Of a DNA stretch of 64,000 nt, positions 8,952-24,018 are shown one piece after another. Every line of letters begins with the position of its first letter. Position 1 is the stretch's first letter. Under the pieces are notes generated by a model. The model saw only the letters and a list, made by a program, of their open reading frames with translations, was not told the DNA's origin and made no database searches. The DNA lies in the NCBI GenBank assembly GCA_945878665.1, contig CAMDUN010000008.1, positions 12 through 64,011 of the forward strand. Direction: 5' to 3'. The position numbers were made by a program, and so were the translations under genes. The DNA is from an uncultured Clostridia bacterium (GTDB lineage: Bacteria; Bacillota; Clostridia; Oscillospirales; Oscillospiraceae).

Positions 8952-11102
8952 TTACTTGATGACCTCGCCGGCGGCCTGCTTGGCGGCGATCTCCTTCATG
9001 GCGTCCTTGTGGCTCAGGTTCACGCGGCCCTTTTCGTCGATCTCCGTGACCTTGACCCACATCATGTCGCCGATCTTGCAGGCATCCTCCACCTTCTCGA
9101 TGCGGTGGTCCGCCAGCTTGGAGATGTGCACCAGGCCGTCCTTGCCGGGGGCAAGCTCCACGAACGCGCCGAAGGTCATGAGACGCACGACGCGGCCATA
9201 GTACAGCTGGCCCACCTCGGGGACGAACACGATGTCGTCGATGCACTTCTTGGCAATGGCGCAGCTCTCGGCATCGGGAGAGGCGATGTGGATCGTGCCG
9301 TCGTCGTCGATGTCGATCTTCGCGCCGGACTCGGCCACGATCTTCTGAATGACGCTGCCGCCCTTGCCGATGACATCGCGGATCTTATCCGGGTCGATGT
9401 GCATGGTCAGCATCTTGGGGGCGTACTGGCTCACCTCGGGCCGCGGCTCGGCGATGCAGGGCAGCATGATCTGATCCAGGATCTGGCAGCGGGCATCGTA
9501 GGTGATGTCCAGCGCGTTCTGAATGATCTCCATGGTCAGGCCGTCGTTCTTCAGGTCCATCTGAATGGCGGTGATGCCCTTCTTCGTACCGGCCACCTTG
9601 AAGTCCATCTCGCCGTGGAAGTCCTCCACGCCCTGAATGTCGATGAAGGTGGTGAAGCTGCCGTCATCGTCCTGGATCAGGCCGCAGGAGATGCCGGCCA
9701 CAGGGGCTTTGATGGGCACACCGGCGTCCATGAGGGCCAGGGTGCTGCCGCAGATAGAGCCCTGGGAGGTAGAGCCGTTGGAGGACACCACCTCGGACAC
9801 CACGCGGATGGCGTAGGGGAACTCCTCCACGGGAGGAATGACGGGCAGCAGGGCACGCTCGGCCAGCGCGCCGTGGCCGATCTCGCGGCGTCCGGGGCTG
9901 CGGGCGGGCTTGGCCTCGCCCACGGAGTAGCCGGGGAAGTTGTAGTGGTGCATATAGCGCTTCTCGGTCTCTTCCCAAATGGTGTCCAGCTTCTGATTGG
10001 CGGACAGGGTGTCCAGCGTGCAGACGGACAGCACCTGGGTCTGACCGCGGGTGAACAGGCCGCTGCCGTGAACGCGGGGCAGCACGCCCACCTCGGCATC
10101 CAGGGGACGGATCTCGTTCTTCTGACGGCCATCCACGCGATGACCCTCCAGCAGCCACTTCTTGACGATCATCTTCTGGAACTTGTAGGTGATCTCCTCC
10201 AGGTACTGATCCATGTTGGGGTACTCTTCCAGGTACTTGTCGTGCCACTTCTCGATCATGGCGTTCCAGCGCTGCTCGCGGACGTTCTTGTCATCAGTGT
10301 CCATGGCGGCCTTGGCCTCGTCCATGAAGTCGGCGGTGATCTTGTTGAACAGCTCGTAGTTGAAGTCGGCGTGAGGATAGTCGAACTTGGGCTTGCCGAT
10401 CTCGGCCACCATCTGATTGATGAGGGCGATCTGCTTCTGGTTCTCCTCGTGGGCCTTCTTGATGGCCTCGAACATGATGGCGTTGGGCACTTCGTTAGCG
10501 CCGGCCTCGATCATGACCACCTTCTTGCCGGTGGAGACCACGGTCACGTCCAGGTCGGAGACCTTACGCTGCTCGGCATCGGGGTTGAAGACCAGCTTGC
10601 CGTCCACCAGGCCCACCTTCAGCGCGGCCACAGGGCCGTTCCAGGGGATGTCGGAGATGGCCAGGGCGGCGGAAGTGCCGATGAGCGCGGCGATCTCGGG
10701 GGAGCAGTTGTGATCCACAGCCATGACGGTACACATGACGGATACGTCGTTGCGGAAGTCATAGGGGAACAGGGGGCGGATGGGGCGGTCGATGACGCGG
10801 GAGGTCAGGATGCCCTTCTCGCCGGGGCGGCCCTCGCGGCGGTTGAAGCTGCCGGGGATGCGGCCCACGGAGTACATCTTCTCCTCAAAGTCCACGCTGA
10901 GGGGGAAGAAGTCGATGCCGTCACGGGGACGGGGAGCGGCGGTGACACAGCACAGTACGCGGGTGTCGCCATAGCCCACCATGACGGCGGCGTTGGCCAG
11001 CTCGGCCAGCTTGCCCACCTCCAGCGTGAGGGGACGGCCCGCCAGGTCCATGGTGTACTTGTGGTAGTGGGGGAACTGACGCTTGGTGATGATGGTTGAC
11101 AT
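8952..11102 (-). CDS. pnp: Polyribonucleotide nucleotidyltransferase
   Basis: Two RNase PH domains (SNGSTS, GEMDFKVAG) plus KH and S1 domains. Confidence 0.98.
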   Translation of the reverse strand: MSTIITKRQFPHYHKYTMDLAGRPLTLEVGKLAELANAAVMVGYGDTRVLCCVTAAPRPRDGIDFFPLSVDFEEKMYSVGRIPGSFNRREGRPGEKGILTSRVIDRPIRPLFPYDFRNDVSVMCTVMAVDHNCSPEIAALIGTSAALAISDIPWNGPVAALKVGLVDGKLVFNPDAEQRKVSDLDVTVVSTGKKVVMIEAGANEVPNAIMFEAIKKAHEENQKQIALINQMVAEIGKPKFDYPHADFNYELFNKITADFMDEAKAAMDTDDKNVREQRWNAMIEKWHDKYLEEYPNMDQYLEEITYKFQKMIVKKWLLEGHRVDGRQKNEIRPLDAEVGVLPRVHGSGLFTRGQTQVLSVCTLDTLSANQKLDTIWEETEKRYMHHYNFPGYSVGEAKPARSPGRREIGHGALAERALLPVIPPVEEFPYAIRVVSEVVSSNGSTSQGSICGSTLALMDAGVPIKAPVAGISCGLIQDDDGSFTTFIDIQGVEDFHGEMDFKVAGTKKGITAIQMDLKNDGLTMEIIQNALDITYDARCQILDQIMLPCIAEPRPEVSQYAPKMLTMHIDPDKIRDVIGKGGSVIQKIVAESGAKIDIDDDGTIHIASPDAESCAIAKKCIDDIVFVPEVGQLYYGRVVRLMTFGAFVELAPGKDGLVHISKLADHRIEKVEDACKIGDMMWVKVTEIDEKGRVNLSHKDAMKEIAAKQAAGEVIK

Positions 11103-11150
11103 GATAACGTTTCTCCTTTTCGTTAAGATGCGTGTGCCGGGTCATCACCA

Positions 11151-11206
11151 TTTAGCACTTGAAAACGGAGAAAACGAAGGGGTTTTCGCCATTTTCAACT
11201 GCTAAA
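11151..11206 (-). promoter_or_regulatory. Long hairpin in the pnp 5' leader
   Basis: 15-bp arms TTTAGCACTTGAAAA and TTTTCAACTGCTAAA (14/15 complementary) with inner pairing. Confidence 0.55.
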
Positions 11207-11277
11207 GGCGTGGGCAGACCCGGAACACAAAAATGTGAAAGAGGGGTGGTGCGAACGCACACCACCCCTGTTTTCCC

Positions 11278-11544
11278 TTACTTACGCAGACCCAGCTTGG
11301 CGATGAGGGCACGATAACGCTCGATGTCCTTCTTGGCCAGGTAGTCCAGCAGACGACGGCGCTTACCGATCATCATCTGCATACCGCGGCGGCTGTGGAA
11401 GTCATGAGGATGCACCTTCAGGTGAGCGGTCAGCTGGTTGATGCGCTCGGTGAGGATGGCGACCTGGACTTCGGGAGAGCCGGTGTCGGTCTCGTGGGTA
11501 CGGTTGGCCTCGATGATAGAGGTCTTCTGATCTTTCAGCATCAT
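11278..11544 (-). CDS. rpsO: 30S ribosomal protein S15
   Basis: [20 protein letters not shown] and LGLRK motifs. Confidence 0.97.
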
Positions 11545-11682
11545 GGTTGTGTTTCCACCTTTCTTGAAATACGCCCGCAGCCTGAGCAGAGGGAGAGATG
11601 GAACGCTCCGCACGCTAAGGCAGGGGTCATGCACGCATAGCGCGTACTTTGTGATGATACCACACTATTCGCGGGTTGTAAA
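11545..11682 (-). promoter_or_regulatory. rpsO promoter and probable S15 autoregulatory leader
   Basis: TTTACA-17-TATCAT at 11682-11654, then a structured leader of about 100 nt. Leader identity is inferred from position only. Confidence 0.55.
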
Positions 11683-11711
11683 GTGGTATTTTGCCCGGAA
11701 CGACAGGAATT

Positions 11712-11903
11712 TCACGCTTTTACCTCGATGGCGGCCACGGGGCAGCTATCCGCCGCCTCCTGAACACCGATCTTGTGTGCGTCGGGAATGGGATCGACCA
11801 GCACACGGGCCGGTTCACCGGCATCCAGGGCGAACACCTCCGGGCACAATCCGGCGCACAGACCGCACTGGATACACGCTTTTTGCAGAACAATGGCTTG
11901 CAT
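11712..11903 (-). CDS. Monocluster ferredoxin
   Basis: CIQCGLCAGLCP...CPVAAI, 63 aa, GGAGG RBS before the ATG at 11903. Confidence 0.9.
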   Translation of the reverse strand: MQAIVLQKACIQCGLCAGLCPEVFALDAGEPARVLVDPIPDAHKIGVQEAADSCPVAAIEVKA

Positions 11904-11974
11904 GGTGAATACCTCCAAAAAATCAGGATGGAGATATTTTCCCCGGCAGGGCGCGGGGTTATACGCGGGGGATG

Positions 11975-13006
11975 TCAATCCTGGGCCAGCCGGCGGGCGA
12001 AGGACAGGGCCTGGGCCTCGATGCCGGGGAGCTTGATGAGACTGCCCCGCTCGTTGGCCGTCTCCAGCAGGCAGAAGTGGGGCGGCAGGAAGAAGGATTT
12101 GTTCATGTTCAGGGCGGAGATGAGCTGGCGGGCCAGCAGGTCGCCGCCGGAGTAGCCGGACACCACCAGGCCGAACAGCCGCTTGTCGTACATCCGGGTC
12201 TGACGGAACAGGGCCGTCAGGCGGTTGATGCAGGCCGTCAGGTTGGCGGCCAGCGCGTCGTTGTAGTTGGCGCACAGCATGACCAGCGCGTCGCACCGGC
12301 GGATGGCGGGGTAGACCTCGTCCACCATCGGACCGCCGTAGAAGCAGCCGCCCTGCTCGCCGAAGTGGAGACAGGCGGTGTAGCTGCACCCGTTGCAGTC
12401 GGCCATCGTGCCGTTTCGCAGGCAGATCTCCTGCACCTCCATGTCCGCCGGCAGGCCGGCCTTGACCAGTTCCCACAGGGCCAGGGTGTTGGACGTGGCC
12501 CGCTGGGAGGCGTGGAGGGCCAGCACCCGGCGGATGGGCGCGGGCTTGTGCCAGTCCGTCAGGCGGCCCAGCAGCTCCGAGATGGCGGCGCGGAAGGCGG
12601 TCTCCTCGTCCACGCCGCCCACCAGCGCCTGGGTGCGGAAGTTCCGCAGAGAGCCGGTGGCCTCCACCAGCGGGCGGCCCAGGAAGGCGCAGCCCGCCTG
12701 GTTGGCGGCGAACACCATGTCGCGGGCCACGTCCTTGGTGTAGAACTCGCCCACGCCGGTGACGACGCAGCCCGCCACACAGCCGCGAAGCAGCGTTTCG
12801 CTGCGGCGCAGGCGGGAGAGCATACGGTAATACGACTGGTTGCAGCCGCCCTCGTCCAGCGCCACGGCAAAGAGCAAGCGGCGGTTTTGCAGGCCGTCCA
12901 GGCTTTCGTCCGGGTCGAGGATGACGCTGCCGGGAGGCAGCAGGGGCGACAGCAGGGCGCGGAGGGCGGGGCTGTATTCATTTTCAGGGAGCAGTACGGT
13001 GAGCAT
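11975..13006 (-). CDS. Two-domain flavodoxin-fold / iron-sulfur flavoprotein-like protein
   Basis: Two flavodoxin-like halves. The C-terminal half has DCNGCSYTAC...GC and NYNDAL...INRL, resembling NADPH-dependent FMN reductase/Isf proteins. Confidence 0.7.
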   Translation of the reverse strand: MLTVLLPENEYSPALRALLSPLLPPGSVILDPDESLDGLQNRRLLFAVALDEGGCNQSYYRMLSRLRRSETLLRGCVAGCVVTGVGEFYTKDVARDMVFAANQAGCAFLGRPLVEATGSLRNFRTQALVGGVDEETAFRAAISELLGRLTDWHKPAPIRRVLALHASQRATSNTLALWELVKAGLPADMEVQEICLRNGTMADCNGCSYTACLHFGEQGGCFYGGPMVDEVYPAIRRCDALVMLCANYNDALAANLTACINRLTALFRQTRMYDKRLFGLVVSGYSGGDLLARQLISALNMNKSFFLPPHFCLLETANERGSLIKLPGIEAQALSFARRLAQD

Positions 13007-13025
13007 AATGGGCCTCCTTGTTGGT

Positions 13026-13982
13026 TCACTCGATGGCGTCCAGCTTGGCGCGGGTCTCCGCCAGGCGCTTCTCCAGCGCCTCCGGCAGGGGGACGTTCTC
13101 CGTTTCCGCGCCGGTGTCGGTCAGGCGGCTGCGGCGGCCCATGAACACCCGGCCATCGTACAGCGAGGCGTAGTGCCACCGGCGGCGCAGCAGGGCCAGC
13201 AGCGTCAGCGCGCCGGAGCTGAGGGCCGGGGCGACGTAGGGCTTGAAGCCCAGCTTACGCATCTCCAGGTTGGCGTGGGCCACCTTCTCCGTCAGCTCAC
13301 GGGACAGGGCATCGTCGTAATGGGTCAGGGAGTTGGCCAGCACCAGATCCTCGCCGTGCGGGCCGAAGGCGCGGCCCTCCGTGAGATACGAGGCGAAGCG
13401 GGGGTCGCGGCGGGCGAAGTACAGGGCGCGGGCGTGCATGACGCCCAGGCCGAAACCCCGTATCTGTTCCGGGGACAGGCCCTGCCCGTCATAATCGCCG
13501 CGCTGGTTTTTGTTGCTCTCCCGAAGCGCCCAGCGGCACAGGGGGTCTACCGGGTCGCTGACCACCACGAACAGGCCGCGGTACTGCTTCTCCCGGGCCA
13601 TGCGGGCGTAATGCCCCACCAGCTCCCGGTTCAGGCCGTACTGGGCCATGCGTACATCCCCCTGCACCACGGAGGTGTCGGGGATCATGCGGGAGGCGCA
13701 GAACAGGAACACGTCGCCGTCAAAGAGCTGCTCCGGGGCGATGATGTCTACCTCCGGCAGCGGCTCGGTCTCCGGCGGGGCGATCTGATCCAGCTCGAAC
13801 TCCCAGCGTGCGGCCACGTTGTCCCGCACGTCGCAGATGCCGATGGACGAGATCACGTCGCCGCCCAGCAGGCGCAATCCCATAAGCAGGGTGCTGCCCA
13901 CGTCGCCCAGGGCCAGCAGCGTGACGCGGGCCTTGTCCGGCAGGCGGGGCAGGGACAGGGGCGCGGTATTGAAAATTTCCAT
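13026..13982 (-). CDS. Atypical LDH/MDH-superfamily dehydrogenase
   Basis: ALGDVG Rossmann start, DPVD and GPHG motifs. AAGGAG RBS before the ATG at 13982. Confidence 0.75.
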   Translation of the reverse strand: MEIFNTAPLSLPRLPDKARVTLLALGDVGSTLLMGLRLLGGDVISSIGICDVRDNVAARWEFELDQIAPPETEPLPEVDIIAPEQLFDGDVFLFCASRMIPDTSVVQGDVRMAQYGLNRELVGHYARMAREKQYRGLFVVVSDPVDPLCRWALRESNKNQRGDYDGQGLSPEQIRGFGLGVMHARALYFARRDPRFASYLTEGRAFGPHGEDLVLANSLTHYDDALSRELTEKVAHANLEMRKLGFKPYVAPALSSGALTLLALLRRRWHYASLYDGRVFMGRRSRLTDTGAETENVPLPEALEKRLAETRAKLDAIE

Positions 13983-13996
13983 GGTATGTCTCCTTT

Positions 13997-16900
13997 TCAG
14001 TCGGCGGGGCGCATCCGCTTGAGGATCTCGATGTCGCCCTCCAAGCAGGCGCTGGCGGCGCGGCTGATGTCGTAGGTACAGCCGCCCTTGTCGGGGCACA
14101 GGGGCAGGATCACCGCCTCGCCCAGCCGGTTCAGCGTCAGGTTGCGGGCGTAGAGAGCGCGGAACTCCGTCTCCAGCGCCAGCAGGATGTCCCGTGCGTT
14201 TTCCAGGCAGCACAGGCTCAGCTCCCACGCCGTTTTCTGATCCATGCCGGTGAACTCCGGCGCGGCGTAGGGCAGTATGCGGTTCACCGCCGGCTGCAAG
14301 CCGCCGGGCAGGCCCTCGCTGCGGCGGACGGTGTCGCCGCCGATGAAGGGATACAGCGTGGACTCCACGAACCTGAGACGCAGGTTGGGCAGGTAGTAGA
14401 TGGCGTCCGCCTCGTAGCCCAGCTGCTCCATCAAATCGCGGCCCATGCCGGTGAGGTAGCCCACCAGCACCATGTCCACGGGGGTGTTGGTCTCCGCCAG
14501 CAGGGGAGCGATGCGCCGGATGCGCTTGCCGTCGTGGAGCATATCGTCCACCAGGATCACGGGCCGGTCGAAGGCGTGGATGGTGCGTACCTGGTCGGGC
14601 AGCGGGGAATAGTCCGGGTACGCCTCGATGGAGCAGCGGCTCAGGTCCGGCTCGTAGACCTTGTCGGTACGCAGCGTCTTGGTGACGGTGTTGGGCACGA
14701 CTACGCCCCGGAGGATCTTGCCGTAGGGCACGCAGATGTCCGGGCCGAGGACGCGGGGCGTTACCGGCTCGGCGGGCACGCCGTTGCGGGCGGTGATGTG
14801 CTGGAGCAGCCGGTGGTAGATGACCCCTGCCGACAGACTCAGCACCAGCGAACCGGGCTGAAGCCGGGTCAGGGCCGCCTGTAAGCGCCGGTGGGCGCTG
14901 CCGATGGCGGCCAGCACACGGGGGGAGGTGCTGAAGGGCTCTTTGATGGCGGTGTCCACGTTGCGGCTGAGGACGATGGGGCAGCGCATATCCACCGCCA
15001 TCGTGTCGCTGCCCTCGGAAATGGGCAGGAAGCCCTGCAAGAGCAGGGTCTGGCGGCCATAGCCGGAGGCCGCGCCCTCCAGGGGGCAGTACAGGCCGTA
15101 GGTGTACTCACGGCTCAGGGCCAGGGTCAGCACCTCCGTCACCAGCAGCTGGCACAGGTCGCTCTGCCGTTCGCCGCGAGGGACGAACAGCCCGCTGATG
15201 AGCAGCGCCCGGCCACCGGCGCTCTGCCGCACCAGCGCCGACAGGGCTGGATCGCCCAGCCGGGCGAACAGGTGCTGGCTGTCCAGACAGCGGTAGGACG
15301 CAGCGCCCAGCACCGCGCCGTTCGCGTCCCGGCAGACCATCACATCGTCGCCGCAGCGCTGCAAAAGCTCCGTCAGGCTCTCCGCCGTGGCGCGGGGCAG
15401 CATGGTACGCAGGAAGGCGGCGGTCTCCCGGATGTCAGTGGGGACGAAGGACAGGTCCTCCGTCCGCAGCACGGGCTTGTCCTGGGGCTCGCGGAGGTAC
15501 AGGCCCTGGCGGTAGATGAACTCCTGCACCGTGGGGTCGATGAGGTTGGACACGTCGCGGTTGGCATCCACCGCCTCGCGAATGCGGGTGGAGCTGATCT
15601 CCTCCAGCTGGGGCGGCAGCGTCAGCTCCACCACATGCCCGGTGATGCAGGAATAGTCGGCCTGCACCGCGTCCGGCTCGGTGCGGCGGAAGATGACGTG
15701 GTCGAAGGTGTGGATGGAATCCGCCTGGGGCGGCTTTTGGTAGGACGAGGCGTGGACCACCACGTCGCTGCCCACCACGATGGACACGCTGCGCCCTGGG
15801 AACGCCTGGCGCAGCTGGCGCAGGTTCTCCGGGTTGGCGATGTTCACCGGGAAGTCCTCCGGGAAGATGTGAACGTGGAACTCGTCCGCCACGGACATGG
15901 ATACGATGCGGCGGCGGACGCGGTAGGGCTGAGTGCGCTTGGACCAGGAAAATTCGTCGATGGCCAGCAGCACCTCGAAGCCCAGGTCTCGGATGGCCCG
16001 GACGATGCCCTTGTGGGACAGGGTGAAGGGGTCAAACGTGCCGGGGAAGAAGGCCACGGGCCGGGGCGGGCCGAAGTCGAACCCGCCGTGGAACAGCCGC
16101 TCCTCGGTGAGGAAGCGGTACAGCTTGCCCAGCATGAACGCCCGGTAGTAGAACGTCAGCTCCCGGTCGGGGGTCTCGTAGTGGGCGGCCAGCAGCTTCC
16201 GATCCGTCAGCAGAAAGGCGCGGCGCTTCTCGTGGCGGCTCAGCTCGTCCGAGCCGAACACGTGGCGGCCCAGCACGAACATAGTCTCCTGGCGGGTGGG
16301 GTCGTCGATGCCGCACAGGCCGTGCATCAGCATACCCAGCAGCCGCTCACGGCGGCGGCGGTAGGCCTCGTCCGTCTCCGGGAAACGGGTGCGGTAGACA
16401 TCGTACTCCTCGTAGATCACGCCCACCGTGTCCAGCACGGAGGCGGTGACGCGGCTGTCGGAGGAGCTGAGGTTCACATGGAGGTCGTCCAGCACCTCAT
16501 TCAGCTCCGCCGGAGGCAGCCACAGGGCGAAGCGGCCCAGGTAGTCGGGGATATATTTGGTGAACTCCTGCTGGCCCAGCTCCAGCCCCCGGCACAGCTC
16601 CACCGCCACCTCGTTGCGCTGGTCGGCGGTGAGCCGGGGCGCAAGCTCCAGCAGGGCGCTGCCGGCGCTGTGGCGCACCGTCACCCGGTCGCTGACCTTG
16701 ATGAGGTTGGACAGGTGGGTGGCGATGTGCAGAGCGGGGCTTTTGCCGCTGCGGGCAAAGTCGGTGAGCAGGCGCAGGTTGGCCTGCTTGGTGATCCAGG
16801 GGGTGGCGGTCTTCAGGTTGTCCAGGAATATCTCGGACACCACGTCATCCGGCAGCAGCAGCGGCGCGCCGCCGGACAGCAGGTCGTCGCGCAGCCAGCG

Positions 16901-18742
16901 CAGCGTGGCGCTGTCGGTGCAGTCCACGGCGGCGATGGCCTCCAGCGGGCCGGGCAGCGACGGGTACAGCCGGTGCAGGCGGTCCAGCAGCAGCACGGCG
17001 GCCAGCCGCACCGTCAGGTCGCCCCGGCGGCACATGGACACGGCGAAGGTACACAGCTCACGGGCGTGGGCGGGGGTCAGGGCGCTGTCCGGCAGGGCGG
17101 CGGCGGTGTCGAGAAGCTGAAAGGCTACGGTGTCCTCCGTGTCCTCCGGGCGGCGGTAGTAGGCAAAGACCGGGGCGAGGAAGCGCTCCTCCCGCCCGGG
17201 GGCGTGGTTCAGCAGGGAAATGACGGCGAATTTCAGGGCGTAGCTGATCCAGCGCCGGTGCTGGGGCATCAGCTTGTGGTCGGGGTAGAGCATCTTGTCC
17301 AGATACAGCTTCCACTGCTCCACATCGGTGGCAGAGCGGGGGTCGGGACGGCTGTCCGCGGGGCGTTCCTTGGCGTAGCCCGCGTGGAAGCCGGCGATGA
17401 TCTCGCCCAGCAGCGCCGCCGCCTGGCGGCGGATGTCGCCCTCGCGGTGCATCAGCAGCTCATAGAGGAACGTCAGCGTCTGCACCTTTTGAGGGATGTG
17501 GAGATAGAGAGAGTAGCTTTCGAATACGCTGAGGTAGGCGCGCAGACGCCGCCAGTTCGTCTCGCCGCGGGCCAGCTCCAGAAGCCGGGCGAAGCTTCGC
17601 TGGCCGGTGAGGCGGGCCATCAGCTCCATGTTGTGCGCCACGCAGCGCATGGTCAGGGCGTGGAGCGCCTCGTCATCGGTCATCAGCGCGGCGTGCTTCT
17701 CCGGCAGGGGGGCGGTGTCGCCGCCTTGCAGCGTCACGTCCACGCCCCGGTCGATCATGTAGCGCTCGAAGTCCTGCAAGCGGGCGTAAACACGGGTGTA
17801 GCGCTGCTTTTTCATGCCGTCCACGTCGTCCAGCTTGGACAGGATCACCTGGAACGCCTCGTCCAGGGACGAAATGCGGCTGATCTCCCGGCCCTGACCG
17901 TCGTGGATCTGCTTCACGCGGAAGTCGGCGTAGATCAGCAGCAGCGCCTCCACGGACAGGTAGTCCGGCTCCAGATCCCACACGGAGTGGTTGGCGGCGA
18001 TGTGGCCGATGTCGGTCATGCGGCGGCGTCTGAACCACAGGTCGGTGTAGTAATAGTGCAGATAGGGCACGCGCTCGCCGGGCCTACATCCGAATTTTCC
18101 GATGTCGTGACCGGCGGCAGCGCCGGACACCAGCGCCAGATCCACCGCCGTGCCGCTGCGGCGCAGGGCACGGGCCGCCGTCAATGCCACGTGGTGTACC
18201 CCGGCGATGTGCTCCAGCGTGCGGAAGGGCGTTACCTCCAGCCCCAGGCGCATCAGCTCGTAGACGTACTCCCGCTTCCACTGGCGCAGAAATTTGGCGT
18301 AGGACGGGGCGCAGGCGCTGTCCGCCAGCTCCGCCTCCGTGAGGAAATCAAAGGTGTAGGCCGGGTCGTGGGGCAGCAGCTCGCCCTCGGCGGCGAACAG
18401 CACCTGCAAGACCGACAGAAAGAACACCGCGCCGGGGGCGCAGGGCTCGTCCTGCTCCCGCTCCGGGTACAAAAGCCGCCGGGCGAAGTCGTAGCTGTAC
18501 GCCAGCCAGCCCTCCTCCGGCCCGACCGGGCACAGGATGTCCAGCTCCGGGCGGCACAGGGCCAGCACATCGGCGCAGCGCAGCCGCGTGCCGTTGAACA
18601 GCGGCGCGAACCGCTGCATATAGCTGTCCCCCTCAGGCCGGGCCAGCAGCTGCTCCCGCCCCGCCAGCCAGTCGGCGGCGCTGCGGTCGGCCAACCGGCG
18701 GCGCAGGGCCAGGTCCATCTGCCGGATACGCTTCTTGTTCAT
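13997..18742 (-). CDS. 1581-aa multidomain protein: HD(HDIG) + HEAT-like + NadD-like nucleotidyltransferase + GNAT-like + PRTase-like
   Basis: H..HDIG..H..H..D; GTFDPFTLSH/GSD/ISSTRIR; VILVDDMLHDG. GGAGG RBS and typical host codon bias. Confidence 0.8.
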   Translation of the reverse strand: MNKKRIRQMDLALRRRLADRSAADWLAGREQLLARPEGDSYMQRFAPLFNGTRLRCADVLALCRPELDILCPVGPEEGWLAYSYDFARRLLYPEREQDEPCAPGAVFFLSVLQVLFAAEGELLPHDPAYTFDFLTEAELADSACAPSYAKFLRQWKREYVYELMRLGLEVTPFRTLEHIAGVHHVALTAARALRRSGTAVDLALVSGAAAGHDIGKFGCRPGERVPYLHYYYTDLWFRRRRMTDIGHIAANHSVWDLEPDYLSVEALLLIYADFRVKQIHDGQGREISRISSLDEAFQVILSKLDDVDGMKKQRYTRVYARLQDFERYMIDRGVDVTLQGGDTAPLPEKHAALMTDDEALHALTMRCVAHNMELMARLTGQRSFARLLELARGETNWRRLRAYLSVFESYSLYLHIPQKVQTLTFLYELLMHREGDIRRQAAALLGEIIAGFHAGYAKERPADSRPDPRSATDVEQWKLYLDKMLYPDHKLMPQHRRWISYALKFAVISLLNHAPGREERFLAPVFAYYRRPEDTEDTVAFQLLDTAAALPDSALTPAHARELCTFAVSMCRRGDLTVRLAAVLLLDRLHRLYPSLPGPLEAIAAVDCTDSATLRWLRDDLLSGGAPLLLPDDVVSEIFLDNLKTATPWITKQANLRLLTDFARSGKSPALHIATHLSNLIKVSDRVTVRHSAGSALLELAPRLTADQRNEVAVELCRGLELGQQEFTKYIPDYLGRFALWLPPAELNEVLDDLHVNLSSSDSRVTASVLDTVGVIYEEYDVYRTRFPETDEAYRRRRERLLGMLMHGLCGIDDPTRQETMFVLGRHVFGSDELSRHEKRRAFLLTDRKLLAAHYETPDRELTFYYRAFMLGKLYRFLTEERLFHGGFDFGPPRPVAFFPGTFDPFTLSHKGIVRAIRDLGFEVLLAIDEFSWSKRTQPYRVRRRIVSMSVADEFHVHIFPEDFPVNIANPENLRQLRQAFPGRSVSIVVGSDVVVHASSYQKPPQADSIHTFDHVIFRRTEPDAVQADYSCITGHVVELTLPPQLEEISSTRIREAVDANRDVSNLIDPTVQEFIYRQGLYLREPQDKPVLRTEDLSFVPTDIRETAAFLRTMLPRATAESLTELLQRCGDDVMVCRDANGAVLGAASYRCLDSQHLFARLGDPALSALVRQSAGGRALLISGLFVPRGERQSDLCQLLVTEVLTLALSREYTYGLYCPLEGAASGYGRQTLLLQGFLPISEGSDTMAVDMRCPIVLSRNVDTAIKEPFSTSPRVLAAIGSAHRRLQAALTRLQPGSLVLSLSAGVIYHRLLQHITARNGVPAEPVTPRVLGPDICVPYGKILRGVVVPNTVTKTLRTDKVYEPDLSRCSIEAYPDYSPLPDQVRTIHAFDRPVILVDDMLHDGKRIRRIAPLLAETNTPVDMVLVGYLTGMGRDLMEQLGYEADAIYYLPNLRLRFVESTLYPFIGGDTVRRSEGLPGGLQPAVNRILPYAAPEFTGMDQKTAWELSLCCLENARDILLALETEFRALYARNLTLNRLGEAVILPLCPDKGGCTYDISRAASACLEGDIEILKRMRPAD

Positions 18743-18812
18743 GGCGCATACCTCCGTTTTCGGGTAGCCGGGACGGCGCTGCCCGGCGAGTCGATAGTTG
18801 ATACTTTATAAT

Positions 18813-18842
18813 ATAATAAATCCCAAGGCGCGGCGCTGTCAA
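18813..18842 (-). promoter_or_regulatory. SigA promoter of the giant-protein operon
   Basis: TTGACA-18-TATTAT on the minus strand. Confidence 0.6.
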
Positions 18843-19095
18843 TATTCTGCGCCGCTTTCCCGGGTCGTTGTCACCATTTTGTCACCGCTTTGTCTCCCAT
18901 TTTTAGACAGTCCTTAAGCTGGTGTTCATAATTTGTTCACGAATAGAGGGCGCTTGTCATGCTATGATAGGGGAGAGACGGCGATTTTTGGCAGGGGCGG
19001 AACATTTCCCGCCGCCGCGCCGTCTATATAGGCAAGTACATGACCGCGCCCGCCCCGTGGCGGGCGGCGAAAAAATGGCAAAAAGGAGAAACGAA

Positions 19096-20418
19096 ATGAA
19101 GAAAGCTGCGTTTTTGCTGGCCCTGGTGATGCTCCTGGGTCTACTGCCCGGCTGCGGCCAGGCGGAGGGCGAGGCCTCCGTTCAATCCGTGTCCATGATC
19201 TGCGGACTGGGCTCGGTGGGCCTGGCCGACCGCTTCGGCGGCATTGTCAGCCCCCTGGGCGAGACGAAGATCAAAAAGGATGACTCCCTCACCGTGGACA
19301 CCATCAAGGTAAAGGTGGGCGACACGGTGGCGGTGGGTGATGTGCTGTTCACCTACGACCTGAGCGAATTGCAGCGCAATTTGGAGAAGGCGCAGCTGGA
19401 GTTGGAGCAGCAGCAGAACCAGCTGGAGAACAAGGAGAGCGAAAAGAAGGATTTGGAGGAGCAGCGGGATCAGACCGGCGATGACGCCGCCCGCCGGGAG
19501 TATACCCTTCAGATCCGAGAGGCCAATCTGGACATCCTGACCTACAAGGCCAACATTTCCTCCAAGAAGAAGGACATCGAGAAGGTGCAGAACAACCTGA
19601 AGAACGCCTCCGTCAAGTCCGAGGTAGCCGGCGAGGTGCAGGCCATCAACGAAAACGGCGGCAGCGACAACAACGGCAACCCCCTGCCCTTCATGACCAT
19701 CGTGGAGACCAGCGGCTTCCGGGTAAAGGGCTACGTCAACGAGAACAACGCCGCCGCCCTGCGGGAGGGCACGGAGGTCATCATCCGCTCCCGCGTCAGC
19801 GATCAGACGTGGAAGGGCAGCGTGGACACCGTGGACTGGAACAACCCGGTGCAGCAGCAGAGCTACTATGACAGCGACACCAGCCTGTCCAGCAAGTACC
19901 CGTTCTACGTGACGCTGGACGAGGGCGATGGGCTGCTGCTGGGCCAGCACGTCTACATCGAGCCGGACTACGGCCAGGAGGACGAGCAGGACGCCAGTGC
20001 CATCAATCTGCCGTCCTACTTCATCAGCGACCCGGACGGCAGCCCCTGGGTGTGGGCGCAGAATAGCAAGGGCAAGCTGGAAAAGCGTGACCTGAAGCTG
20101 GGCGAGTACAACGCAGATACGGATACATATCCCGTGCTGGAGGGCCTGACGGCGGAGGACTACATCGCTTACCCCGACGAGAGCCTAAAGGCCGGCATGG
20201 CCTGCGTGACCTATGACGACGCCACCTTTGATCCCGGCACGAACGGCGGCACAAACGGCGGCATGGACGGCGGCATGATCGACGGCTCGGCGGACGTCCC
20301 TACGGATGAGGGCACTTCCTCTGCTATCGGCGGTGAGACGGAGGGCACGACGAACGTGGAGTATGGCGGTATGGCGGAGTCCACCGCGCCGGTGATTACC
20401 CCGCCGATGGAGGGCTGA
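19096..20418 (+). CDS. HlyD/RND-type periplasmic adaptor subunit
   Basis: Signal/lipobox-like N-terminus, VKVGDTV lipoyl-like motif, coiled coil. AAGGAG RBS. Confidence 0.8.
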   Translation: MKKAAFLLALVMLLGLLPGCGQAEGEASVQSVSMICGLGSVGLADRFGGIVSPLGETKIKKDDSLTVDTIKVKVGDTVAVGDVLFTYDLSELQRNLEKAQLELEQQQNQLENKESEKKDLEEQRDQTGDDAARREYTLQIREANLDILTYKANISSKKKDIEKVQNNLKNASVKSEVAGEVQAINENGGSDNNGNPLPFMTIVETSGFRVKGYVNENNAAALREGTEVIIRSRVSDQTWKGSVDTVDWNNPVQQQSYYDSDTSLSSKYPFYVTLDEGDGLLLGQHVYIEPDYGQEDEQDASAINLPSYFISDPDGSPWVWAQNSKGKLEKRDLKLGEYNADTDTYPVLEGLTAEDYIAYPDESLKAGMACVTYDDATFDPGTNGGTNGGMDGGMIDGSADVPTDEGTSSAIGGETEGTTNVEYGGMAESTAPVITPPMEG

Positions 20419-20420
20419 CT

Positions 20421-21101
20421 ATGATCCTTGAAATGCGTGACATCTGCAAGGACTACCCCATGGGCAAGGGCGTGGCACACATTCTGAAGAACGTGAACCT
20501 TGACGTGGGGGAGGGCGAGTACCTTGCCATCATGGGCCCTTCCGGCAGCGGAAAGACCACACTGATGAACCTGATCGGGTGCTTGGACGTGCCCACCAGC
20601 GGCAGCTATCTGCTGGGCGGGCGGGACATCACCCAGTGTACCAACAAGCAGCTGGCGGAGGTGCGGAACAAGGAGCTGGGCTTCGTGTTCCAGTCCTTCA
20701 ACCTGCTGCCCAAGCTGACGGCGCTGGACAACGTGGCGCTGCCGCTGCTGTACGGCGGCGTGAAGAAGGCGGAGCGGCTGGAGCGCGCCCGTGCGGCGCT
20801 GGAGACGGTGGGTCTCAGCGACCGAGTGGATCACCGGCCCGACCAGCTGTCCGGCGGCCAGTGCCAGCGCGTGGCCATCGCCCGTGCCATCGTGGGCGAG
20901 CCGAAGCTGCTGCTGGCGGATGAGCCTACCGGCGCGTTGGACAGCGCCAGCGGCGCACAGGTCATGGAGCTGTTCCAGCAGCTTCACGACAGGGGCTCGA
21001 CCATCATCATGATCACCCACGACCGCAGCATCGCCCACCACGCCCATACCATCAAGACCATCCGCGACGGCGTACTGTCGGGAGGTGACGAGAGTGAATA
21101 A
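20421..21101 (+). CDS. ABC transporter ATP-binding protein (MacB/YknY-like)
   Basis: GPSGSGKT, LSGGQCQR and LADEPTG motifs. Confidence 0.93.
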   Translation: MILEMRDICKDYPMGKGVAHILKNVNLDVGEGEYLAIMGPSGSGKTTLMNLIGCLDVPTSGSYLLGGRDITQCTNKQLAEVRNKELGFVFQSFNLLPKLTALDNVALPLLYGGVKKAERLERARAALETVGLSDRVDHRPDQLSGGQCQRVAIARAIVGEPKLLLADEPTGALDSASGAQVMELFQQLHDRGSTIIMITHDRSIAHHAHTIKTIRDGVLSGGDESE

Positions 21102-22758
21102 GAAGCTGAAAAAGATCATCATCACCGCCGCCATCGCGGTGGCCGCCTGCGGCGCGGTGTGGGGCGGACTGACCATCGCCCGCAACGCCCAGCGGGGCGA
21201 CGTGAACGTGTACTCCGTCAGCGATTTCGCCATGACCAACTACTGGGGCGACACATCCAGTACCAACGGCATGGTCACAACGGATAAGCTGCAGAAGATC
21301 TACGTATCCTCCACCCAAACGGTGAGCAAGGTCTACGTCACCGAGGGACAGACGGTGAAAAAGGGCGCGAAGCTGTTGAGCTACGACTCCTCCCTGTCCC
21401 AGGCGGAGGTGGAGCGGGCGCAGATCCAGTACGAGCGCCAGTCCGGCAATCTGGAGGACGCCAAGACGGAGTTCAAGCTCCTGCAAAAGGCCAAAAACAA
21501 GGAGGCGCTGCAGCTGGAGCTGAACAAGCTACAGACCCAGCTGGACGCGGAGAAGAAGAAATACGACCAAGATCCCAGCCATCCCTACGACGGTGATAAC
21601 CCGGTGACGGAGGCGCTGCTGGGCACGAAAACGGTGGAGAACAGCTCCGGCGGCAAGGAAACGGTGTACTACTACGCCTGGCCCAGCAAATCCACGCTGT
21701 CGGGTGAGCATCTGCTCACCGACTTCGGCGGACGTTTGCGGGCTACGGAGAGCACCAGCCCGCTGGTGACGAATATCGTCCTGGTGCAGCGCACTGATGA
21801 TAAGATCGGCGGCAGCATCCAGGCCAACTGGGGCGTCAAGGTGACGGATACCTACACGAAGACCGGCGAGACCACCTACAAGGTCACGGTGGACGTGCAG
21901 CTGGTGACGAACCTGCCGGACTACGAAGACCCCGGCCACACCTACAACAGCGAGACCATTCAGAAGCTGGAGCAGCAGGTGGCCCGCGCCCAGGAGCTGA
22001 TGGACAGCTCCATGACCCGGCAGGAGCTGGATGTGGCCATCGGCACGAAGTACAAGGAGATCGGCCAGCTGGAGACCAGCCTGAAGGTCGCCAAGCTGGA
22101 TCTGGAGAAGAAAAAGAGCGAACTGGGCGACGGCAACGTCTACGCCGAGTTCGACGGCACGGTGAAGGCCGTGCGGGACGCCACGGAGGCCTTTAACAGC
22201 GGCGAGGCCGTGGTGGAGCTGTCCGGCGGCGGCGGATATTACGTCACCGGCACGCTCAGCGAGATGGATCTTGGCAGCGTTCAGGTGGGCGACACGGTGC
22301 AGATCAGCAGCTGGCGCACCGGCGTGAACTGCGAGGGCGAGATCGTGTCCATCGACGACTACCCCGCGCAGAACGGCAGCAACTCGGGCGACGGCAACAG
22401 CAACGTGTCCTACTACCCGTTCAAGGTGTTCGTCAGCGAGGACGCCAATCTCCAGCCCAACGACTACGTGGAGATGCAGTATCAGAAAACGGCGGAGGCC
22501 GACAGCGCCGACAGCCTGTATCTGGAGAGCTTCTTCCTCCGCTCCGAGAACGGCAAGAGCTACGTTATGGTACGGGGCGAAAACGACAAACTGGAGAAGC
22601 GCTGGGTGCAGACGGGCCGCGACCTGTGGGGCAGCTACACGCAGATACGGGGCGGCCTGACGCTGGAGGACTACGTGGCCTTCCCCTATGGCCGCGACGT
22701 GGTGGAGGGTGCTCACACCCAGGAGGCCACCGCGGATCAGCTGTATAACGGAATGTAA
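21094..22758 (+). CDS. Second adaptor (membrane fusion-like) subunit
   Basis: N-terminal TM segment, VTEGQTVKKG, coiled coils. GGAGGTG RBS before the GTG at 21094. Confidence 0.75.
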   Translation: MNKKLKKIIITAAIAVAACGAVWGGLTIARNAQRGDVNVYSVSDFAMTNYWGDTSSTNGMVTTDKLQKIYVSSTQTVSKVYVTEGQTVKKGAKLLSYDSSLSQAEVERAQIQYERQSGNLEDAKTEFKLLQKAKNKEALQLELNKLQTQLDAEKKKYDQDPSHPYDGDNPVTEALLGTKTVENSSGGKETVYYYAWPSKSTLSGEHLLTDFGGRLRATESTSPLVTNIVLVQRTDDKIGGSIQANWGVKVTDTYTKTGETTYKVTVDVQLVTNLPDYEDPGHTYNSETIQKLEQQVARAQELMDSSMTRQELDVAIGTKYKEIGQLETSLKVAKLDLEKKKSELGDGNVYAEFDGTVKAVRDATEAFNSGEAVVELSGGGGYYVTGTLSEMDLGSVQVGDTVQISSWRTGVNCEGEIVSIDDYPAQNGSNSGDGNSNVSYYPFKVFVSEDANLQPNDYVEMQYQKTAEADSADSLYLESFFLRSENGKSYVMVRGENDKLEKRWVQTGRDLWGSYTQIRGGLTLEDYVAFPYGRDVVEGAHTQEATADQLYNGM

Positions 22759-22770
22759 GGAGGCGGGACA

Positions 22771-24018
22771 ATGGGTGAAAATATAAATCTCGCCTTTCAG
22801 GGCGTATGGAGTCACAAGCTCCGCTCCTTCCTGACCATGCTGGGCATTATCATCGGCATCGCCGCCATCATCACCATCGTGTCCACCATTCAGGGCACGA
22901 ACGAACAGATCAAGCAGAACCTCATCGGCGCGGGCAATAACGTGGTGCGGGTGCAGCTCATGCAGGACAACTACACCGCCGACCTGGGCTACTCCGCCCT
23001 GCCTGACGGCATTCAGCCCATCACCCGCGAGATGCGATCGGAGATGGAGAAGCTGGACTGCGTGGAGACCGTGTCCCTGTATAACCAGCGCCAGTGGAGC
23101 GACGGCGTGTACGTGGGCAACACCGCGTTCAGCGGTTCGCTGTACGGCGTGGACGAGAACTATCTGTCCGCCGTGGACTATGTGGTCAACTATGGCCGCG
23201 CCTTCACCGCCGGCGATTACGAGAACCGCCGCTGCGTGGCGCTGATAGATGCCAAGACCGCCCAGTCCCTGTTCAAGGGCCGCAACCCCATCGGCGGCAC
23301 GGTGGAGATACAGAGTATGCCCTACACGGTGGTGGGCGTGGTGTCCGCCCGCTCCACCTCCGAGCCGGTCATCAACAGCTATCAGGACTATTGGATGTAC
23401 TCCGGCAACACCTCCGGCACGATGTTCATCCCCGACGTGACCTGGCCGGTGGCCTATCGCTATGACGAGCCCCAGTCCGTAGCCATCCGCGCCACGTCCA
23501 CCAACGACATGACCAAGGCCGGCGACAACGTGGCCAAGTACCTGAACGAGAACGTGATCTCCACGGATACCTTCAAGTACCAGTCCGTTGACCTGCTCCA
23601 GCAGGCCAGCGATTTGCAAAGCCTGTCCGAGGCCACCAACAAGCAGCTCATCTGGATCGCCGCCATCTCCCTGGTGGTGGGCGGCATCGGCGTCATGAAC
23701 ATCATGCTGGTGTCCGTCACGGAGCGCACCCGCGAGATCGGCCTGAAGATCGCCATCGGCGCGCAGCAGAGCCGCATCCTGTGGCAGTTCCTGACGGAGG
23801 CCGCCGTGCTGACCAGCATGGGCGGTATCCTGGGCGTGGCCACAGGCATCGGCCTGGCGGAGATGCTGTCCCACATCATGGGCACGCCGGTGGCCATCAG
23901 CGTCCCGGCCTGCGTCATCGCCGTGGCCTTCTCCATGGTCATCGGCGTGGTGTTCGGCCTTGTCCCGGCCATGAAGGCCTCCAAGCTGAACCCCATCGAG
24001 GCGTTGCGGAGAGAATAA
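22771..24018 (+). CDS. ABC transporter permease (MacB/FtsX type)
   Basis: RSFLTMLGIIIG, GGIGVMNIMLVSVTERTREIG and PIEALR motifs. Confidence 0.93.
   Translation: MGENINLAFQGVWSHKLRSFLTMLGIIIGIAAIITIVSTIQGTNEQIKQNLIGAGNNVVRVQLMQDNYTADLGYSALPDGIQPITREMRSEMEKLDCVETVSLYNQRQWSDGVYVGNTAFSGSLYGVDENYLSAVDYVVNYGRAFTAGDYENRRCVALIDAKTAQSLFKGRNPIGGTVEIQSMPYTVVGVVSARSTSEPVINSYQDYWMYSGNTSGTMFIPDVTWPVAYRYDEPQSVAIRATSTNDMTKAGDNVAKYLNENVISTDTFKYQSVDLLQQASDLQSLSEATNKQLIWIAAISLVVGGIGVMNIMLVSVTERTREIGLKIAIGAQQSRILWQFLTEAAVLTSMGGILGVATGIGLAEMLSHIMGTPVAISVPACVIAVAFSMVIGVVFGLVPAMKASKLNPIEALRRE

Follow-up and report, generated by a model that had tools for sequence, protein, structure and literature searches.

What one bacterial polypeptide does with a hydrolase-like domain, a nucleotidyltransferase (NTase) domain and a phosphoribosyltransferase (PRT)-like domain on a single chain is the question raised by a minus-strand open reading frame (ORF) at positions 13997 to 18742 of the window, the 64,000-nucleotide stretch of contig CAMDUN010000008.1 analyzed here, which comes from an uncultured gut Clostridia bacterium of the Oscillospiraceae. 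In the translation of the window the ORF stays open for 1581 codons with no internal stop, and it encodes a genuine, single-copy protein of five modules. Three of them look catalytic or ligand binding: the HD domain, the NTase (of the HIGH superfamily) and the PRT-like domain. The other two, a helical-repeat platform of about 550 aa and a GNAT fold without the acetyl-CoA signature, look structural. The favored reading, with a probability of roughly 0.5, is a scaffolded small-molecule nucleotide pathway in which the PRT-like and NTase domains would build a nucleotide-linked product, the HD domain would hydrolyze it and partner proteins would carry out redox chemistry. Three probable active sites on one conserved protein of ~1,600 aa, together with its two dedicated redox partners, suggest a part of nucleotide or cofactor metabolism that is yet to be described.

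A Five-Module Protein

The start of the protein, MNKKRIRQM, is common to 39 full-length orthologues. Its parts are listed below. The two percentages that close each line for a module are the mean identity to the window protein and the share of alignment columns at least 90% conserved, both across 81 family representatives (22-56% identity).

13997..18742, minus strand: 1581-aa multidomain protein (P0001), stop codon included, defined by the ORF and the orthologue start
18293..18742, minus strand: N-terminal region, residues 1-150 (150 aa), all-helical in the AlphaFold2 (AF2) model and poorly conserved; 19%, 2%
17738..18292, minus strand: HD phosphohydrolase domain, HDIG-type, residues 151-335 (H178, H212-D213, H229, H252, D273); 51%, 18%
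16073..17737, minus strand: alpha-helical repeat (HEAT-like) region, residues 336-890, from profiles, AF2 and conservation; 31%, 5%
15479..16072, minus strand: NTase of the NadD/NMNAT/PPAT class, residues 891-1088, from Pfam, NCBIfam and PDB searches; 48%, 14%
14873..15478, minus strand: GNAT-fold domain without the conserved acetyl-CoA loop, residues 1089-1290, from AF2/Foldseek and alignment; 24%, 3%
14243..14872, minus strand: divergent type I PRT-fold domain, residues 1291-1500, from AF2/Foldseek and alignment; 43%, 13%
14000..14242, minus strand: C-terminal helical cap, residues 1501-1581, from AF2; 37%, 6%

An initial annotation made from the letters alone had proposed much of this layout, and the motifs that it picked out lie where it placed them (H212-D213 at ~18109, GTFDPFTLSH at ~16042, ISSTRIR at ~15598 and VILVDDMLHDG at ~14560). 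Its intact HD metal-ligand set, NadD-like NTase, degenerate GNAT segment and type I PRTase-like loop are each borne out by the results below. Its HEAT/ARM-like helices are upheld as helices, by AF2 over residues 340-520; their identity as HEAT repeats reaches only sub-threshold scores.

The HD and Nucleotidyltransferase Domains

The HD ligands H178, H212-D213, H229, H252 and D273 are invariant in an alignment of 28 orthologues and are kept in 74-75 of the 81 diverse representatives. The Pfam HD model (PF01966) matches 16 of 28 members, with a best E of 1.3e-5. At 11.8 bits the window protein stays under the gathering score of 22, which is passed by the distant homologues L060 (25.0 bits) and L064 (24.5 bits). 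AF2 models span residues 1-520 and 1088-1581, and the first is all-helical, with a mean predicted local confidence (pLDDT) of 84.5. In Foldseek searches, the strongest HD fold matches are weak and go to PgpH (probability 0.84-0.92, template-modeling [TM] score 0.36-0.39) and an HD-GYP protein. Like the PgpH and HD-GYP phosphodiesterases (4s1b, 4s1c, 4mcw), which are its highest-probability fold matches, the domain carries the HDIG-type motif, and its ligand set would suit a two-metal site. Unlike them, the window protein has no GYP motif and no membrane domain, and the matches reach TM scores of 0.26-0.39 at E >0.3.

The NTase is recognized by Pfam CTP_transf_like (PF01467) at E 3e-6 and 27.9 bits, above the gathering score of 21. 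The best NCBIfam match is the NadD model TIGR00482, at E 2.3e-10 and 40.8 bits against an equivalog cutoff of 112.45; the remaining NadD models give 21-31 bits against cutoffs of 150-315, and PRK07152, of the NadD–YqeK type, matches at E 3.3e-6. Sequence and profile searches of the PDB return VPA0413 (3h05), NadD, NMNAT and phosphopantetheine adenylyltransferase (PPAT), with 3h05 as the best single-sequence match (E 2e-5).

The motif segments of the class are FFPGTFDPFTLSH at residues 898-910 and ISSTRIR at residues 1049-1055. Across the 81 representatives the first motif reads F-D-P-F-[S55/T24]-x-[G42/S34]-H(72)-K. The window version is T907-L-S-H910, with the His kept in 72 of 81, and in I1049-S-S-T-x-I-R1055 the Arg is kept in 75 of 81; the domain thus has both the (H/T/S)xGH and the ISSTxxR motifs. 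The TLSH sequence, which had been singled out as a variant of HxGH, turns out to be an ordinary member of the family pattern [S55/T24]-x-[G42/S34]-H. PPAT itself carries TxGH, which the family motif resembles. PPAT/CoaD and the NadD-like proteins of the VPA0413 type (3h05) share with the family an FDPxTxGH-like first motif, in which Thr or Ser takes the position of the initial His. Unlike these proteins, the window family has a C-terminal ISSTxIR of NMNAT/NadD character and a substrate-binding segment of its own, DEFSWSKxTQP; the invariant DEFSWSK replaces the PPxK region that binds nicotinate mononucleotide (NaMN).

The C-Terminal Domains and the Helical Platform

The AF2 model of residues 1088-1581 has a pLDDT of 82.4 and a predicted TM score (pTM) of 0.85. 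Foldseek against the PDB pairs it with type I PRTs (XPRT 1y0b at E 5.9e-5 and a target-normalized TM of 0.44, APRT, UPRT and 1vch) and with many GNATs (E 9e-5 to 1e-3, target-normalized TM 0.5-0.58, e.g., 2jlm, 4rs2 and 5trm). BFVD, an independent library of predicted viral protein structures, gives the GNAT and PRT folds too. The sequence signal for the PRT fold is weak: Pribosyltran (PF00156) matches 25 of 28 members, with a best E of 0.0025. Pfam GNAT models match 3 of 28 members only, at E>=0.045, and the acetyl-CoA motif A (Q/R-x-x-G-x-G/A) is absent; the corresponding loop, residues 1187-1197, reads VPRGERQSDLC and is variable and gapped across the family. CitC, the citrate lyase ligase, also carries a GNAT-like domain and a HIGH-type NTase domain on one chain. 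The domain order of CitC is opposite to that of the window protein, and the target of CitC is an acyl-carrier prosthetic group.

Conservation is dense in the PRT-like domain. As in type I PRTs (Bacillus subtilis XPRT 1y0b/2fxv; APRT; UPRT), the core fold includes a hydrophobic strand that ends in an acidic pair. In this phosphoribosyl pyrophosphate (PRPP) loop, V-I-L-V-D1399-D1400, D1399 is found in 78 and D1400 in 73 of the 81 representatives. The pair is followed by M-L-H-D-G-K-R in the window and by L-L-H-K-G-Y-R in the family consensus. Other conserved positions are PNTVTK (1350-1355), LVDD (1397-1400), G1405, R1407, WxxESxLYPFIGGD (YPFIGGD at residues 1464-1470) and SxNxILPY (the N1487/P1491 loop). 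The stretch of residues 1478-1496 (window 14255-14311) that contains the invariant SxNxILPY is the part of the AF2 model with the lowest confidence (pLDDT <50). The segment is a conserved but apparently mobile loop, and in this it recalls the flexible catalytic loop of PRTs.

AF2 models residues ~340-520 of the helical region as helical hairpins, with helix pairs at 356-512. The Pfam HEAT model gives E 0.0065 and 17.1 bits against a threshold of 23.5, and weak profile matches to CAND2 and designed helical repeats fall at E 0.004-0.008. Residues 336-470 align to residues 471-610 as an internal repeat (hhalign probability 84%, E 7.6e-6). The region may be HEAT-like, on evidence that is consistent but weak and sub-threshold throughout. 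It also carries the conserved motifs NLKxATxW (642-649), A-T-H676-L-x-N and YIPxYLG (730-736). H676, in the A-T-H-L-x-N motif (residues 673-682, window 16696-16725, minus strand), is invariant, as are only five other columns of the 81-sequence alignment. A-T-H-L-x-N and YIPxYLG are retained in most relatives that have no HD domain. The invariant H676 and the strongly conserved motifs argue against an inert linker, and alignment of the H676 motif suggests a functional site inside the helical region.

A Family with Interchangeable Parts

The protein belongs to a large family. A word-indexed search that scored 8000 candidates found at least 7310 proteins at E<=0.001. An exhaustive search with residues 382-1581 as query, in which representatives stand for clusters at 50% identity, gave 973 representatives at E<=0.001. 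At E<=1e-30 there are 321, of which ~80 are full-length (1500-1750 aa). Close relatives are found in the Oscillospiraceae (UMGS1702 at 95%, CAG:341 at 90% and Vescimonas sanitatis at 84%; also Oscillibacter and Pelethomonas). Distant members occur in cultured Fusibacter, Sedimentibacter, Senegalia, Crassaminicella, Marinisporobacter, Acidaminobacter, Caminicella, Thermotalea and others. The family thus spans relatives of Vescimonas and Oscillibacter among the abundant Oscillospiraceae of the human gut and cultured Clostridia of sediments and hot environments. Its spread is patchy, covering 13 of 151 genomes (12 of 134 genera) within the bacterial family of the window; in a phylum-wide sample it turns up in 11 of 401 genomes (5 of 278 genera). 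Databases name its members "cytidyltransferase" or "nicotinate-nucleotide adenylyltransferase" / "nicotinate-nicotinamide nucleotide adenylyltransferase", and literature searches found no characterized member and no paper describing the family.

Forms without the HD domain, 1100-1320 aa long, are real: there are many independent representatives, with a Met at the helical region and a normal C terminus. In 5/5 contexts of such HD-less genes (metagenome contigs L066-L072), a protein of 850-895 aa is encoded directly upstream, its end overlapping the start of the large gene or lying at most 2 nt from it. This partner has a central PPDK_N ATP-grasp domain (E ~1e-40) between uncharacterized N- and C-terminal parts, and sequence searches found no relative of it in the PDB. 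The idea that it is a hidden HD protein was rejected, at a probability of 3% and with the partner unrelated to the HD region. The five contexts hold no genes like the dehydrogenase and flavoprotein partners of the window operon described below, and no separate HD gene lies beside the HD-less forms in the loci fetched.

A second HD-less type of 1309-1316 aa (L073, L074) keeps those two partners, the lactate dehydrogenase (LDH)-like and FMN_red proteins. On both contigs it follows, on the same strand, glucose-6-phosphate isomerase (PGI), a 179-aa Pribosyltran protein (a small PRT) and a DeoC-family aldolase. Crassaminicella thermophila (CP042243; L075, L076) has two full-length paralogues, one of which has both partners. 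The other (P0325) comes directly after a gene for a kinase resembling aminoglycoside phosphotransferase (APH), fructosamine kinase and choline kinase. The kinase-linked paralogue is followed by genes for an OB-fold protein and a small HD protein.

What stays constant across these architectures of the wider family is a core of helical region, NTase fold, GNAT fold and PRT-like domain. Of 24 HD-less or shortened variants checked, 23 retain the acidic pair and one, P0262, has A-P there. As judged from such alignments, the PRT-like site is the most constant part, and the HD domain and the partner enzymes are interchangeable. The replacement of the partners by a PPDK_N ATP-grasp protein or a kinase is in keeping with an NTase whose substrate is a phosphorylated small molecule. 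The variant operons, with their ATP-grasp partner, kinase partner or HD-less forms, amount to natural experiments on the chemistry, and cultured hosts exist.

An Operon with Two Redox Partners

In the window, the large gene is predicted to head an operon whose genes are translationally coupled and share one common promoter:

18813..18842, minus strand: promoter-like sequence of the sigma-70 type, TTGACA-18-TATTAT, 11/12 matches, ~70 nt upstream of the start codon
18751..18755, minus strand: ribosome-binding site GGAGG, 8 nt ahead of the ATG at 18742
13026..13982, minus strand: dehydrogenase-like partner of the LDH/malate dehydrogenase (MDH) superfamily, 318 aa, from profiles and conserved context
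11975..13006, minus strand: Isf-like FMN/Fe-S flavoprotein partner, 343 aa, from Pfam and conserved context
11712..11903, minus strand: 4Fe-4S ferredoxin with a single cluster, 63 aa, closing the unit in close relatives only

An AAGGAG site precedes the ATG of the LDH-like gene, which follows the stop of the large gene by 14 nt. Its product is a remote relative of LDH/MDH (profile match to 1ldb, E 6e-7) that retains GDVG, SDPVD, the substrate Arg and the GPHG His. The Asp that activates the His in LDH is Met in all LDH-like members, which keep the catalytic His and the substrate Arg. Most of its relatives are 400-430 aa long and have an extra N-terminal domain of ~95 aa (MxxYxYxGY...RAVNxxHPRW), e.g., L011:10763-11998; this domain was lost in the subclade of the window, L001, L031, L033 and others. 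The Isf-like protein has an FMN_red domain at 160-315 (E 7e-18), a CxxCxxxxC cysteine cluster and a 150-aa N-terminal domain.

The triad of the large, LDH-like and Isf-like proteins is found in nearly all of the 56 Oscillospiraceae loci with a contig that extends downstream. It also occurs in six genomes of other families at 38-47% identity and in isolates of Fusibacter, Sedimentibacter, Acidaminobacter and Crassaminicella. Among seven distant loci compared, no genes other than the triad are shared.

Relation to Housekeeping NAD Synthesis

The initial annotation had compared the protein, as a larger and far more complex fusion, with the frequent gene neighborhood of nadD and yqeK in Firmicutes. 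The host genome (2.13 Mb, 98.6% complete) argues against an enlarged NadD–YqeK. It encodes a separate canonical NadD (G000:C4:77659-78249) that scores 141.5 bits, above the NadD cutoff, and that shares one ORF of ~431 aa with a YqeK-type HD domain (L057 1387-2682; CTP_transf_like 1e-21, HD 6e-14). Such a fusion in one ORF is also seen in mycoplasmas. A PncB-like nicotinate phosphoribosyltransferase (NAPRTase) is present as well. Because the genome has this canonical fusion and the PncB-like gene, the large protein is, on the strength of gene content, not the housekeeping NadD. A role as the missing NAD enzyme of the genome was rejected too, since only NadC was not found in the 98.6%-complete assembly. 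For the family, NadD is at best a domain-level name, and NAD-pathway reconstructions for these organisms may be misled by it.

When the family profile is aligned by hhalign to the genome's NadD–YqeK, the NadD half aligns (probability 85%, E 6e-6) and the YqeK half does not, and the identification of the HD domain as YqeK (COG1713) was rejected on this result. In the fusions and clusters of Firmicutes and mycoplasmas, which pair a NaMN adenylyltransferase with an HD diphosphatase or diadenosine tetraphosphate (Ap4A) hydrolase, the YqeK HD domain fused to NadD hydrolyzes mis-made dinucleotides (PMC9426524). The window protein likewise has an NTase of the NadD class and an HD domain on one chain, and the idea of a hydrolase that cleans up or reverses NTase products carries over. 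It differs in its reversed domain order, with the two domains 550 aa apart, and in its three additional modules and other partner genes; its HD domain cannot be aligned to YqeK, and its NTase scores far below the NadD cutoffs.

A Proposed Scaffolded Nucleotide Pathway and Its Alternatives

The favored pathway reads each catalytic step and substrate from the observed folds, motif conservation, operon and architectural variants. The PRT-like domain would bind PRPP or another phosphoribosyl compound, and the NTase would transfer a nucleotidyl group, probably AMP, to a phosphate-bearing small molecule, giving a dinucleotide-type product or one activated by a nucleoside diphosphate (NDP). The HD domain may hydrolyze or proofread this product or its by-products, for which NadD–YqeK offers a precedent (PMC9426524). 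The two redox partners would make, modify or use the compound, the partners in variant operons would supply phosphoryl chemistry, and the helical platform would hold the activities and partners together.

In a narrower and distinctly doubtful version, the triad would have a redox cofactor or metabolite of its own, of dinucleotide type and not described before, which it both makes and uses. The PRT-like domain would join a base or other acceptor to PRPP, the NadD-like domain would adenylylate the resulting compound and the HD domain would proofread or recycle it. The divergent LDH-like dehydrogenase would then use the compound and the Isf-like flavoprotein would link it to ferredoxin, with sister operons feeding the same core from kinases.

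Several observations weigh against the scaffolded pathway. The folds and motifs, as far as sequence comparison goes, point to no specific substrate for any domain. Foldseek support for the HD fold is weak, with nothing at E<=1e-3 for the N-terminal model (residues 1-520). Many HD-less relatives have Asp for the HIGH-motif His and a degenerate ISSTxIR while their PRT-like motifs remain, which implies that the NTase chemistry is not universal in the wider family. Unlike type I PRTs, the PRT-like domain has H-D/K-G-x-R where these have the 5'-phosphate binders (S/T)-G-x-(S/T), shows its own invariant motifs PNTVTK, WxxESxLYPFIGGD and SxNxILPY, and scores 12.4 bits against the PF00156 threshold of 26.3. 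Given the missing 5'-phosphate binders and the sub-threshold score, it could be a ligand sensor and not a transferase. An Rfam search of positions 11000-19600 at E<=1 found no riboswitch or regulatory RNA upstream; its sole match is the rpsO–pnp hairpin.

The alternatives, in rough order of probability, are a Kennedy-type line, NAD/Ap4A homeostasis, a ligand-sensing regulator and defense. The first, unlikely but the strongest of the four, has the NTase nucleotidylate an alcohol or hydroxy-acid in phosphorylated form, which is next passed on; the PRT-like domain would serve as a transferase or binder, and the product would be a cofactor or envelope building block, not a dinucleotide. That the LDH-like partner would make the hydroxyl group is an equally tentative part of it. 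The kinase-coupled variants speak for this line, with the APH/choline/fructosamine-kinase-like gene directly upstream of the Crassaminicella P0325 and the PPDK_N protein adjoining or overlapping the start of the large gene in 5/5 HD-less contexts. Pyruvate, lactate and phosphoenolpyruvate are central to both LDH and PPDK chemistry, and HIGH-family NTases (PF01467) include the glycerol-3-phosphate and choline-phosphate cytidylyltransferases. However, ISSTxIR is more like NadD/NMNAT than like the ISTT/ISTS of cytidylyltransferases, the triad operon has no kinase, the NTase looks inactive in several PPDK_N-linked forms (His to Asp, ISST lost) and the PPDK_N domain is uninformative about the substrate. 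The NadD character of the NTase favors a view that builds on the initial annotation, in which one chain combines a paralogous adenylyltransferase for NaMN/NMN with a hydrolase of the Ap4A/NaAD type and, as an enlarged NadD–YqeK, balances synthesis against hydrolysis to set the levels of NAD(P) or Ap4A, while the PRT-like domain makes the mononucleotide. That the helical scaffold would regulate these opposing activities, as the initial annotation supposed, is a tentative part of this view. The best family matches of the NTase are indeed NadD models (TIGR00482, PRK07152) and NMNAT/NadD structures, the LDH-like partner keeps a Rossmann motif and the Asp at the end of strand 2 as in NAD-dependent enzymes, and the NadD–YqeK link is established (PMC9426524). 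This view is nevertheless improbable, with all NadD equivalog scores (TIGR00482, PRK00071) far below their cutoffs (40.8 vs 112.45 bits for the best), a NadD–YqeK and a PncB-like gene already in the genome, an HD domain that does not align to YqeK, and DEFSWSK in place of the NaMN-binding PPxK. Nicotinate and nicotinamide PRTs, moreover, are type II and not type I. The HD domain is dispensable in whole subfamilies, so an obligatory pairing of synthesis and hydrolysis is not the core logic of the family.

Loss of the GNAT motif and the conserved surface motifs in the helical region would also fit a regulator, in which the PRT-like and GNAT-like domains are ligand-binding pseudo-enzymes that control either an HD/NTase pair forming and degrading a signaling nucleotide or partner enzymes on the HEAT-like region. 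PRT folds act as regulators in PyrR and PurR. They also bind ppGpp, the XPRT entry 6w1i is among the top fold matches, and PgpH and HD-GYP, to which the HD fold compares best, are cyclic-dinucleotide phosphodiesterases. Those HD matches are weak, though, the protein has no DNA-binding or output domain, and its PRT-like domain is the most universally conserved, with an acidic pair and dense invariant residues typical of an active site; a sensor is a poorer candidate still. The patchy occurrence (12 of 134 genera; 5 of 278 phylum-sample genera) recalls the multidomain nucleotide-modifying proteins common in defense islands, but an anti-phage or NAD-depletion/restoration system is very unlikely because PADLOC found no match for any of the three triad proteins. 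The locus is also stable beside rpsO–pnp and vertically inherited across genera, with no flanking mobile-element genes. The scaffolded nucleotide pathway stays the favored reading.

Flanking Genes

Downstream of the ferredoxin gene lies rpsO, with its own promoter-like site at 11682-11654 on the minus strand, and then pnp. The long rpsO–pnp hairpin (window 11131-11229) weakly matches, on either strand, a model of plant microRNA precursors (E 0.02, 0.11) and is probably the rpsO terminator or a pnp leader hairpin. On the other side of the large gene, a divergent operon on the plus strand (window 18922-24018) encodes an HlyD-like protein, an ABC ATPase, a second HlyD-like protein and a MacB/FtsX permease, which together make up an efflux system. 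This efflux operon adjoins the large gene in close relatives only.

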